A stretch of 4,443 nt of DNA, from IMG/VR virus record IMGVR_UViG_2713896778_000022. One strand, given 5' to 3'. The stretch is from a virus. Lineage: Duplodnaviria; Heunggongvirae; Uroviricota; Caudoviricetes. How positions within the stretch are numbered: the stretch's first letter is position 1; the number at the start of each line of letters is the position of its first letter. Shown here one piece after another: positions 1,686 to 4,443 of this stretch. The position numbers and the translations under genes are program-made. A model generated the notes under the pieces. It saw nothing but the letters and a program-made list of their open reading frames with translations, was not told the origin of the DNA and made no database searches.

Positions 1686-2000
1686 ATGCTGAAACAGCAG
1701 GATATGACAGAAACCGCCAGAGTGGTGTTTAATGAATTAAGCGTCACCGAACCGGCGACAGTCGGGGAGATTGCGCAGAATACTTACCTTTCANNNNNNN
1801 NNNNNNNNNNNNNNNNNNNNNNNNNNNNNNNNNNNNNNNNNNNATTTGTGGTAAATGGGCGGCTGGTGGGTGTTAGGGGCACTCACCAGCCATCTGCTCA
1901 TGCGTTGGGGTCACAAGCAAACCTCAGGCCCATCTGCTTTGCGCAAAAGCGGTATGAGCCTATCAGAGAAGTGCTTATTGATCTATGGCTAATACTGTAA
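1686..2000 (+). CDS. small hypothetical protein, interrupted by an N-gap at 1794..1843; 3' end overlaps the methyltransferase start
   Basis: ATG at 1686 is preceded by AAAGGGAAA about 7 nt upstream. The first 36 codons read MLKQQDMTETARVVFNELSVTEPATVGEIAQNTYLS. After the gap only one frame stays open, ending at TAA 1998..2000, which overlaps the ATG at 1985. The ORF-track extension back to 1563 has no ribosome-binding site and overlaps the terminator, so I take 1686 as the start. Whether the part after the gap belongs to the same protein cannot be shown. Confidence 0.4.
   Translation: MLKQQDMTETARVVFNELSVTEPATVGEIAQNTYLSXXXXXXXXXXXXXXXXXFVVNGRLVGVRGTHQPSAHALGSQANLRPICFAQKRYEPIREVLIDLWLIL
1794..1843. 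other. run of 50 N (assembly gap or masked sequence) inside the small ORF
   Basis: Unbroken N characters. Confidence 0.95.
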
Positions 2001-3061
2001 AAATATCCAGTTGTGAGTTAATCAACGCCGACTGCCTGGAATTTATCCGGTCATTACCCGAAAATTCTGTTGACCTGATAGTCACGGACCCGCCGTACTT
2101 TAAAGTGAAGCCTGAGGGCTGGGATAACCAGTGGAAGGGCGACGATGATTACCTGAAGTGGCTGGACCAGTGTCTGGCGCAGTTCTGGCGGGTGCTGAAA
2201 CCTGCCGGAAGTCTTTACCTGTTCTGTGGTCATCGCCTGGCATCTGATATCGAAATCATGATGCGTGAACGCTTCAATGTGCTGAACCATATTATCTGGG
2301 CGAAGCCGTCCGGACGCTGGAACGGGTGCAACAAGGAAAGCCTGCGGGCGTATTTTCCGGCCACAGAACGCATTCTGTTCGCGGAACATTATCAGGGGCC
2401 GTATCGTCCGAAAGATGATGGCGATGAGGCGAAGGGCAGGGCACTGAAACAGCATGTGATGGCCCCGCTGATTTCTTACTTTCGTGATGCGCGTGCTGCT
2501 CTTGGGATAACGGCAAAACAGATTGCAGATGCCACAGGAAAGAAAAACATGGTGTCGCACTGGTTCAGTGCCAGTCAGTGGCAGCTACCGAACGAAAGCG
2601 ATTATCTGAAATTACAGTCGCTGTTTGCCCGGGTGGCAGAAGAGAAACATCAGCGGGGAGAACTGGAAAAGTCCCATTACCAACTGGTCAGCACATACAG
2701 TGAGCTGAACCGGCAGTATATGGAACTGCTGAGTGAATATAAAAATTTGCGGCGGTATTTCGGTGTGACGGTGCAGGTGCCGTACACCGATGTGTGGACG
2801 CATAAACCGGTGCAGTACTATCCAGGGAAACATCCGTGCGAAAAACCGGCAGAAATGCTGCGGCAGATAATCTGCGCGAGCAGTCGTCCGGGTGACCTGG
2901 TGGCGGATTTTTTCATGGGTTCTGGCTCAACCATAAAAGCAGCTATGGCGCTCGGGCGTCGTGCAACTGGTGTTGAACTGGAGGCAGAACGTTTTGCGCA
3001 GACCGTTAAGGAGATTAGTCACATCCTTACATGCTCAATTGATGACGGGAAGGATGGATAA
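1985..3061 (+). CDS. beta-class DNA methyltransferase (N6-adenine/N4-cytosine family; DPPY favours N6-adenine), orphan
   Basis: Intact 358-aa ORF. Catalytic motif IV, VTDPPYF, is at aa 33..39 (nt 2087..2098 encode DPPY). The AdoMet-binding motif I, FFMGSGST, is at aa 309..316 (from nt 2909). The order motif IV, then a long variable region, then motif I is the beta-class arrangement. Stop TAA at 3059..3061. No restriction endonuclease candidate is present in the window. Confidence 0.85.
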   Translation: MANTVKISSCELINADCLEFIRSLPENSVDLIVTDPPYFKVKPEGWDNQWKGDDDYLKWLDQCLAQFWRVLKPAGSLYLFCGHRLASDIEIMMRERFNVLNHIIWAKPSGRWNGCNKESLRAYFPATERILFAEHYQGPYRPKDDGDEAKGRALKQHVMAPLISYFRDARAALGITAKQIADATGKKNMVSHWFSASQWQLPNESDYLKLQSLFARVAEEKHQRGELEKSHYQLVSTYSELNRQYMELLSEYKNLRRYFGVTVQVPYTDVWTHKPVQYYPGKHPCEKPAEMLRQIICASSRPGDLVADFFMGSGSTIKAAMALGRRATGVELEAERFAQTVKEISHILTCSIDDGKDG

Positions 3062-3172
3062 AGATATGGTCAGTTCAGGCTGTGAAGCAAGTAGACAGAT
3101 AAGGCTGCAATAAAAACTGACAATAGTAAAATAGCTTTTTCCCAGGTAGTCATGAATACGATCTCTTAAAGC

Positions 3173-3192
3173 GCCCGCTGATACCAGCGGGC
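3173..3192. other. perfect GC-rich hairpin (8-bp stem, 4-nt loop) without a clean U-tract
   Basis: GCCCGCTG-ATAC-CAGCGGGC. On the + strand it is followed by AATACATA; on the - strand by GCTTTAAGAG. It lies about 110 nt downstream of the methyltransferase stop. It could be a weak terminator for either strand or an RNA stability or processing element. Confidence 0.3.
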
Positions 3193-4282
3193 AATACATA
3201 CTGGCATTAATGTTAAGTTCAGGGATAATTCATCGTATTTTGTGGTACGACGCTATCAATATTAATAAACAGTATTTTTCATGTAAAATTTCTGTTTTTT
3301 TTGATCTGATTCTCGTTTCCTGGGTTATGATGTTGTTGTGAACCATGCTGTTGAATGATAATGTTCGGGTATAAAATTGTTGCTGATATGTAGCGCAGTG
3401 AGCGGGTGGTATTTCTGTTGCTGAGTGTACGGATACAGTGCTTCCCTCCCTCAGCGGGGGGGCAGGTGTGCTGTGGTTTTAGAGACACCGGAAACGAGAA
3501 TGATGCGGGTTTGCTGGTGCCGGGATAGAGTCGCCGGAGGTCATGACATAGAGCAAAAAAGGAATGTGCATGCAAATACACACCTCTTCGGAGAGCTCTT
3601 CTTTATATGGATGAGCCTCAAGGTCAATAGTTTATCTGTTATGTATTCATATGTTGTTACTTATATAATCCATACGGGCATATCATCAGTACACACATAC
3701 TATTATGGCATTTTATTTTTGTTTTAACTGAATTCCCGGGGCACTCTTTTTGATTTCTGATAAGGAACCAGAATTTTCTGTTAAATGGTGTCACGTTGTA
3801 AATGGTTAATGGAAGCAGCTTATTATCCATAATCACACCTGAGTTAACAGGTGTGAGAATACTTCCGGGTGGCAGGAACACATCTGACTGATACCAGATT
3901 ATCAACTTTATTTTACACCATACAGTTGAAAACGTTATTCCGCTTGATGGGCATATCACTGTGTCAATAACTATCCATTCCATCTTTTAACCTTCTCGGT
4001 ACACATTGCTTTCGATTGTTTTGCTAAAAATCATAGTCAATAAATCAGTGTAACTCATTGATAAAGATCGTTTTCTTTGTCTTCCTGGGGGTTTCTTTTC
4101 TAATTTTGTATCACTTTGGTTCAAGTTGTTTCATTTTTTGTAATACAAATTAGCAGGATGAGCGGGAATATAAAAAAATCGGATGTTTTTGTAATGGATA
4201 TTATTTTTTGTAAAATAATGTATTTTTATTTAAATCTCTATCAGAAAAGAATTTATTGTTCCTTTATATGGTGGAAAAGGTC

Positions 4283-4443
4283 ATGGTATTTAAACACTAC
4301 GATGTGGTCAGGGCGGCATCGCCGTCAGACCTTGCTGATGCACTTGCGCAAAAAATTCGTGAAGGATGGCAACCATACGGTGGGCCGTTTTCTTCGTATA
4401 CGGATGATGGCGCAGCACTTATTCAGGCGATTGTCGCAGAAGG
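4283..4443 (+). CDS. small phage late-region protein (DUF1737-like), N-terminal 53 codons; 3' end lies outside the window
   Basis: ATG at 4283 is preceded by GGAAAAGG. The translation MVFKHYDVVRAASPSDLADALAQKIREGWQPYGGPFSSYTDDGAALIQAIVAE has the ..GW.PYG..dg..QA.V pattern I associate with the small DUF1737-type proteins found beside lambdoid lysis cassettes. The family name is from memory and not verified. Confidence 0.55.
   Translation, partial: MVFKHYDVVRAASPSDLADALAQKIREGWQPYGGPFSSYTDDGAALIQAIVAE

Follow-up and report, generated by a model that had tools for sequence, protein, structure and literature searches.

An intact iraM-family gene and a probable relic of an STnc100/PasD-type small RNA gene in the cargo slot of a lambdoid prophage

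What does a prophage keep in more than a kilobase of AT-rich DNA between two late genes? The question is raised by positions 3062-4282 (1221 bases) of a 4,443-nucleotide stretch of the virus record IMGVR_UViG_2713896778_000022 (hereafter, the window, at its full length), an interval that separates a DNA methyltransferase gene from a late gene starting at 4283. A preliminary description made from the letters alone took this interval to be non-coding and proposed a non-coding RNA locus, a decayed cargo gene ("moron"), or a regulatory or nucleoid-binding spacer. The premise of a non-coding interval does not hold: 327 of the 1221 bases form an intact, RefSeq-annotated protein gene on the opposite strand, which evolves under purifying selection, so that the non-coding share is about 890 bp. 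Our reading of the locus as a whole, which we hold to be very probable, is that of an intact iraM gene in a cargo slot, with a product that would act on RssB and RpoS, adjoining a decayed gene of the STnc100/PasD type of small RNAs (sRNAs).

An intact iraM gene antisense to the late operon

The gene occupies the minus-strand open reading frame (ORF) at 3657-3983, which consists of 108 codons and a stop codon. The predicted protein matches the NCBIfam profile NF007393 (IraM; PRK09919) with 144.2 bits, above the cut-off of 121 (E 1.6e-42), with residues 1-107 aligned to profile positions 1-110 of 114. In RefSeq, the same ORF is labeled iraM (WP_001443281.1), with identical coordinates, in 100% identical genomes of Escherichia coli O121:H19. 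The window protein is 55% identical to IraM of E. coli K-12 across 106 amino acids, without gaps, and in a phmmer search of the PDB its residues 1-77 matched chain A of 8TWD (IraM) at E 2e-29; by this match, it is homologous to the solved IraM core, a PmrD-like beta-barrel of residues 1-78. A protein scan over one genome per species yielded no confirmed homologue. Thus, ORF 3657-3983 is an intact lysogenic-conversion gene of the IraM family that lies antisense to the phage late operon and, being annotated in RefSeq and belonging to a characterized family, is already known from this prophage.

The comparison with K-12 is instructive both for what is shared and for what differs. The K-12 protein (YcgW/ElbA), an RssB anti-adaptor that is induced by Mg2+ starvation and whose structure is PDB 8TWD, has nearly the same length (107 amino acids against 108 in the window) and the same four C-terminal cysteines. 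The K-12 gene likewise adjoins prophage DNA, given that the e14 feature ends approximately 270 bp away in the RefSeq record, and it has been placed on e14 itself (PMC4045071). Unlike its K-12 counterpart, the window gene resides in the late-region cargo slot of a prophage of the inducible lambdoid type, antisense to the late operon.

Selection on the gene is apparent at two scales. We aligned 13 distinct, near-identical copies of the prophage from IMG/VR and found no variable site in the 327-bp coding sequence, whereas the 894 bp that flank it in the interval contain 20 single-nucleotide polymorphisms and many insertions or deletions (indels) in the same 13 variants. In comparisons with five prophage homologues (63-83% protein identity), the ratio of nonsynonymous to synonymous substitution rates (dN/dS) of the ORF is 0.11-0.17. 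Together, the invariant coding sequence amid variable flanks and the low dN/dS demonstrate purifying selection on iraM.

Why, then, did this gene escape notice? According to the preliminary description, no ORF in the interval combined a ribosome-binding site with a plausible composition, and three ORFs of about 100 amino acids were set aside as mutually overlapping and suspiciously rich in Cys and Trp. For 3657-3983, this assessment was mistaken: a Shine-Dalgarno sequence, GAGAAGG (3991-3997, minus strand), precedes the ATG (3983-3981) by 7 nt, and its AGAAGG is retained in the related prophages L004, L022 and L023 (we designate individual relatives by such numbers). The supposedly odd residues Trp22, Trp30 and the four C-terminal cysteines are invariant in the IraM-family alignment, and the overlap amounts to just 71 nt shared with one of the two spurious ORFs. 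A translated search for a known gene, which had been named as the test that could overturn the non-coding view, does recover a known gene, but one that is intact rather than frameshifted. The lesson is a practical one: visual inspection is not sufficient ground for discarding AT-rich, Cys/Trp-rich ORFs on the reverse strand of phage cargo slots.

The dismissal was justified for the other two ORFs, 3279-3581 (minus strand) and 3425-3727 (plus strand). Neither has a family match, and both are frameshifted in near-identical prophages by changes in homopolymer length: both cross a poly-G run at 3455-3461, which has seven G in the window and 6-11 G among the aligned variants, and one of them contains, in addition, a T run of variable length. 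Because they cross a run of such variable length, we do not consider these ORFs to be genes. In the IMG/VR contigs L014 and L018, a 60-bp deletion (3402-3461) removes the poly-G run along with part of both ORFs. The poly-G variation and the deletion fit neutral decay, and the run could also be a hotspot of sequencing errors. A further minus-strand ORF, 3035-3199, was not accepted as a gene, since most of the changes that separate it from L004 are non-synonymous.

Predicted action of the protein and control of its gene

In K-12, IraM binds both domains of RssB as well as the linker and blocks the RpoS-binding face, and RpoS escapes ClpXP (PMC10844676). The same study shows that IraM has a PmrD-like connector fold and contacts RssB through 14 residues in clusters I-III. 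In the alignment with K-12 IraM, 9 of these 14 residues are identical in the window protein, and the other five changes are conservative. Cluster I, which touches the RssB receiver domain, is retained in full (Ile4, Ile6, Trp22, Lys26 and Ile42), and the remaining identical contacts are Phe18, Trp30, Ile61 and Tyr62. By analogy with the K-12 protein, the IraM-family product would bind RssB, the adaptor of ClpXP, and block the delivery of RpoS to this protease; in a lysogen, RpoS, and with it general stress resistance, would be expected to rise. In the literature searched, we found no paper that tests a prophage-borne iraM allele.

The orientation of the gene suggests when it might be read. The flanking genes are all on the plus strand, downstream of a Q-type gene, so that late transcription must cross the interval, as the preliminary description had recognized. 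On the 3' side of the Q-type gene, a hairpin, CCACCGGAAGGTGG, followed by T7 (1542-1562) resembles tR', and the region 1445-1565, which ends in this hairpin, is likely a pR'-tR' unit; in Stx (Shiga toxin) phages, this unit gives rise to the short StxS/6S-like RNA. Because late transcription stops at the upstream tR' in a lysogen, iraM could be read there from its own putative promoter, and after induction the Q-modified polymerase would read iraM in antisense.

The candidate promoter lies in the 5' region of iraM (3984-4131, minus strand), which comprises a -10-like TATGAT, a weak -35 and a weak direct repeat resembling a PhoP box. With L004 and L022, this region shares 78-79% identity as far as about 4131-4132, and similarity with L023 extends only to 4083. 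Farther upstream, between this region and the late gene, is a spacer of about 25% GC (4132-4282) that is specific to this lineage: it is homologous neither to L004 nor to L042, a relative without iraM, and its homopolymer lengths are polymorphic among the 13 variants. The short repeats noted previously are present here, in the form of three copies of (A/G)TTTTTGTAA at 4135-4152, 4186-4203 and 4203-4218, which could be an array of binding sites or mere AT-rich low complexity. It is plausible that the approximately 300 bp of very AT-rich DNA upstream of iraM function as a promoter or as regulatory DNA of the H-NS type; H-NS binding at 4132-4282 would be a reasonable guess from base composition.

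Several observations weigh against the reading outlined above. Beyond cluster I, conservation of the contacts is partial, with two of the five residues identical in cluster II, where the changes relative to K-12 are the conservative Thr13Ser, Cys14Ser and Leu75Ile, and two of the four in cluster III (H63N, I64V). At 55% identity, the window protein appears to be as far from IraM as IraL is, a protein that binds RssB differently. The candidate promoter consists of a -10-like hexamer (TATGAT/TATACT, minus strand, 4035-4030) that precedes the ATG by about 45 nt and is conserved in all prophage homologues, together with a poor -35, and is best called putative. The DNA homology with K-12 ends at window position 3989, 6 nt before the iraM ATG, and the upstream regions are unrelated; the sole PhoP-like repeat that a search for PhoP boxes returned upstream of the gene (4067-4051) has three mismatches, and the search gave 18 matches where 13.4 were expected. 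Finally, the homology of the GC-rich island with STnc100, discussed in the next section, is statistically marginal, and a second nhmmer search, with a hidden Markov model (HMM) of 10 sequences and both with and without the terminator, produced no match to the island.

Two of these points narrow what may be carried over from K-12. Because homology ceases 6 nt upstream of the start codon and PhoP-like matches are no more frequent than chance, the PhoP and H-NS control of the K-12 gene is not transferable to the window gene; a K-12-type promoter with a PhoP box, the mark of IraM in the strict sense, is lacking in the window, and the PhoP/Mg2+ control of K-12 iraM is not implied for a gene with an unrelated promoter region. 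The other concerns IraL. This IraM paralogue of uropathogenic E. coli CFT073 and Shigella, 58.9% to IraM and encoded on the potB island, binds only RssB's N-terminal domain and stabilizes RpoS via RssB under conditions other than those of IraM (PMC4045071). By the published figure, with which alone the comparison was made, its divergence from IraM is similar to that of the window protein (58.9% vs 55%), although IraL is encoded on a horizontally acquired island and the window gene in a lambdoid late region instead. Divergence of the IraL kind leaves room for an altered specificity of the window protein.

Taken further, this argument leads to an alternative in which the IraM-like protein, with its PmrD-like fold, has been retargeted, binding, in place of RssB, a different response regulator or some factor of the phage or the host, and leaving RpoS stability unaffected. 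The level of identity and the three differing residues of cluster II are compatible with such a shift, as are the connector fold of IraM (PMC10844676) and the way in which IraL has already diverged in RssB binding (PMC4045071). We nevertheless regard retargeting as unlikely, given that cluster I retains its five receiver-domain contacts and cluster III its core, that the score exceeds the curated cut-off of the IraM subfamily, and that the protein is under strong purifying selection within a family of which both tested members act on RssB.

The cargo slot and the GC-rich island

The interval is the cargo slot of a lambdoid prophage of E. coli of the Shiga toxin type, namely O121:H19 and relatives; it is bounded by the Q/methyltransferase region and by the esterase-like and lysis genes, and in Stx2 phages this position is occupied by stx2. 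It is 100% identical to lambdoid prophages of E. coli O121:H19 and 98.9-99.9% identical to those of O111:H8, O103, O39 and other strains; altogether, it was matched in 44 of the 5426 complete genomes, with at least 80% of its length covered in 28 of these. Searched against phage records by megablast, the interval had no match, and in sensitive blastn its sole match was the iraM coding part. Stx-converting and related lambdoid phages share with the window the order Q, a small winged helix-turn-helix gene, DNA methyltransferase, cargo, a DUF1737-esterase-like gene, holin and lysozyme, and the cargo of their slot between Q and the lysis genes comprises stx2AB, the tRNA genes ileZ/argN/argO and the nanS-p esterase gene. 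The window prophage differs in having neither stx nor tRNA genes (a tRNA scan of the window found no tRNA), so that its slot contains iraM and the sRNA relic only. Some Stx2 phage records annotate stx2 and iraM together in the matching region.

The moron idea of the preliminary description survives insofar as this is indeed a cargo slot, which relatives fill with tRNAs, STnc100 or stx2; the iraM gene within it is intact. The module at 3062-3318, considered below, is conserved.

Among these cargoes, STnc100 is the recurrent neighbor of iraM. An intact copy (Rfam RF02076, 83-146 bits) is present at every diverged prophage iraM locus that we examined (62-83% IraM identity), on the late-gene strand, convergent with iraM and roughly 20-50 nt from its stop codon; iraM itself is always antisense to the late genes. 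Such copies include L004 6050-6257 and L025 4360-4572, with the same arrangement in L023, L022, L028 and L034, and intact STnc100 is also found at L041 3378-3588 and L042 3474-3681, the scores across relatives being 83-148 bits. In L004, the order is methyltransferase, tRNA-Thr/Arg/Gly, STnc100 and iraM, and in L042, the close relative without iraM, it is methyltransferase, tRNAs, STnc100 and DUF6645. We found no mention of the iraM/STnc100 pairing in the literature searched. The published locations of the family, in which STnc100 follows the stx2 operon of Stx2 phages at a distance of 75 nt (PMC12370729) and the related PasD precedes the sialate esterase gene (preprint 10.64898/2026.05.13.724894), agree with the slot in the window. 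An ORF antisense to PasD1 in E2348/69 was tested as a relative of iraM and found to be unrelated.

In the window, the corresponding place is taken by the GC-rich island, the presence of which within an AT-rich interval the preliminary description had correctly reported: most 200-nt windows of the interval have a GC content of 0.25-0.39, compared to 0.48-0.575 in the methyltransferase gene, and the island reaches 0.535 at 3401-3600. We aligned it with five STnc100 copies and with PasD1 and PasD2 of enteropathogenic E. coli E2348/69, whose coordinates were taken from table S6 of PMC8550237. From about 3430 to 3612, the window is colinear with the family, and the C-rich/G-rich 5' hairpin (CCCTCCCTCAGCGGGGGGG vs CCCCCTCAGCGGCGGGG), the GCGGGTTTG..CCGGG core and the terminator region line up. 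An HMM of 7 sequences matched 3448-3606 at a marginal E of 0.019. Aligned locally and by itself, the segment 3319-3582 outscores 498-500 of 500 dinucleotide shuffles with 4 of 10 family members, and with the remaining six it does not stand out. The DNA of the window is homologous to that of L004 over 3062-3318 and then again from 3583, inside the STnc100 terminator, and 3583-3609 is homologous to the L004 terminator. As for synteny, slot, strand and spacing are those of STnc100/PasD1/PasD2 (EcOnc13), which end about 20-50 nt from the iraM stop codon: the relic (3448-3609, plus strand) is on the late-gene strand, between Q/methyltransferase and esterase, and convergent with iraM, its end about 48 nt from the stop codon. 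Given the null result with the second profile, the call rests on the marginal E-value, the pairwise alignments against shuffles and the synteny; because modest statistics are joined here by exact synteny, we conclude that the island is probably a homologue of an STnc100/PasD-type sRNA gene. It does not appear to be a tRNA remnant, given that its alignment is with the sRNA rather than with the relatives' tRNAs.

Whether this gene still produces a functional RNA is a separate matter, and a rival explanation holds that it does, the interval being chiefly an active locus in which the island (about 3430-3610) is transcribed into a functional, Hfq-dependent sRNA similar to STnc100/PasD. The colinear alignment, the syntenic position on the right strand and the retention of the 5' hairpin (CCCTCCC/GGGGGGG, -16.6 kcal/mol) are in line with this view, and PasD and STnc100 are real, expressed sRNAs of this slot (PMC8550237; preprint 10.64898/2026.05.13.724894; PMC12370729). 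The elements that an active gene would need, however, have been lost. The family promoter is a sigma-70 promoter, TTGACA/T ... TGTTAAAA, located just before the GCATGGTG 5' end, and in the alignment the window has TGTTGCTG in place of TGTTAAAA at the -10 position and GATACAGTG in place of the 5'-end GCATGGTG. The conserved closing helix GCAUGGUG/CACCAUGC is absent; the window sequence allows 13 of the 27 consensus pairs, compared to 22-27 in seven family members; and the terminator is reduced to a 3-bp stem (-2.3 kcal/mol), compared to an 8-bp stem in L004 (-17.3 kcal/mol). Rfam gave no family at E<=1 on the window, and STnc100 (RF02076, gathering threshold 47 bits) had no match even at E<=10 on 3250-3700 (451 nt); a permissive scan returned MicF and sR40 at E of about 10, which is chance level. 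The tests for structured RNA on both strands of 3300-3600 gave z-scores of -0.34 and -1.63, no better than shuffles, and near-identical prophages tolerate the 6-11 G of the poly-G run and the 60-bp deletion. The gene is decayed and is best called a relic rather than a member of the family, and we consider an active sRNA locus quite improbable. The initial suggestion of a non-coding RNA locus therefore stands insofar as the island resembles a non-coding RNA gene, but this gene lacks promoter, closing helix and terminator.

The relic is preceded by lineage-specific DNA. The 264 bp between 3318 and 3583 are found in this prophage type only, and a query comprising 3300-3600 was found only in the 29 genomes with this prophage type. 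For 3319-3447, the place of the tRNA genes and of the STnc100 promoter in relatives, no homologue was detected outside this prophage type, nor did blastn of the whole interval against phage records yield a match there. An inverted repeat (3309-3325 / 3485-3501; 17 nt, 15 of 17 complementary, 159 nt between the arms) has its left arm at the breakpoint of L004 homology; by our estimate, it is about a 1-in-10 chance event, and no mobile-element signature was found with it. In L004, a second, partial STnc100 promoter with the 5' hairpin (5416-5486; nhmmer E 2.7e-13) precedes the tRNA-Thr/Arg/Gly cluster by about 30 nt, which gives the impression that the tRNA genes, too, are driven by this promoter module.

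The possibility that no part of the interval, not even iraM, has a present function, being either silent cargo in decay or a spacer bound by nucleoid proteins, strikes us as very unlikely. In its favor, the AT-rich DNA is of the kind silenced by H-NS (K-12 iraM is itself repressed by H-NS), the adjoining sRNA gene is decayed and the downstream DUF6645 gene is a pseudogene in O121 genomes. Against it, none of the 13 variants has a substitution in the iraM ORF, which is intact in each of them amid varying flanks and has a dN/dS of 0.11-0.17, and the ribosome-binding site and -10 element of the gene are conserved.

A conserved module and the biology of the slot

The interval opens, directly after the methyltransferase gene, with a conserved non-coding module (3062-3318) that is 83% identical to L004 by blastn; a MAFFT alignment of 3040-3330, which takes in the last 22 nt of the methyltransferase gene, has a mean column identity of 91%. 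The module is present in 42 of the 5426 genomes, and among the records listed its sole annotated feature is one "hypothetical protein". At its center, a block of about 75 nt (3146-3223) is invariant in four prophages, with flanks that are only 77-83% identical. The block includes an 8-bp GC hairpin (3173-3180/3185-3192; -17.4 kcal/mol, z -4.1), one example of the hairpins in the interval, without a U tract on the plus strand and with a weak one on the minus strand. A five-codon mini-ORF (3152-3169; MNTIS, or MNAIY in L041) ends right at this hairpin, and its differences between copies are mostly at third positions. In relatives, tRNA genes are located 100-500 nt downstream of the invariant block.

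These recurrent features allow a more ambitious conjecture, namely, that iraM and STnc100/PasD constitute a conserved, convergent and functionally linked two-gene cassette in the lambdoid stx slot and, separately, that the block at 3152-3192 is an undescribed cis-regulatory element that controls entry into the slot. The link could involve, for example, the sRNA terminator serving as the 3' end of iraM, or an antisense or co-regulatory coupling onto the RpoS/stress network. We give this conjecture a small chance. If true, the lineage of the window would have kept the protein half under selection after losing the RNA half. The recurrent convergent iraM-STnc100 pairing and the invariant hairpin block are points that may be worth further work.

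The surroundings are those of a lambdoid late region. In two identical genomes, RefSeq gives the order DUF968, RusA, DUF1133 Q-type protein (902-1444 in the window, plus strand), small hypothetical protein, DNA methyltransferase (1985-3061, plus strand), iraM on the opposite strand, a DUF6645/DUF1737 gene (from 4283, plus strand; Pfam PF08410, E 1.6e-13), holin, lysozyme and terminase. A scan of 2900-4443 for intrinsic terminators found none. Two runs of 50 N, at 742-791 and 1794-1843, hide a portion of the RusA gene and the final part of the small gene that precedes the methyltransferase. L014 and L018 have the segment 3040-4443 at 99% identity but lack the methyltransferase gene and the small upstream gene, and the segment is joined almost directly to the tR' region, which indicates that the cargo module moves independently of the methyltransferase. 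The late gene at 4283 (a DUF1737 N-terminus) is a pseudogene in O121 genomes, disrupted by an internal stop or by a frameshift (L001 7207-9165; L002 7222-9167), and in L001 several lysis genes are frameshifted as well; thus, at least some copies of the prophage are decaying while iraM remains intact.

The decayed STnc100-like sequence adds a small data point on the turnover of prophage sRNA genes, the subject of the 2026 preprint on Pas sRNAs. The iraM gene itself documents a homologue of an RpoS stabilizer in non-Stx lambdoid prophages of Shiga toxin-producing E. coli O121, O111 and O103, at the position where Stx phages carry the toxin. Should the protein truly increase RpoS in lysogens, these food-borne pathogens would owe to it part of their tolerance of acid and stress.

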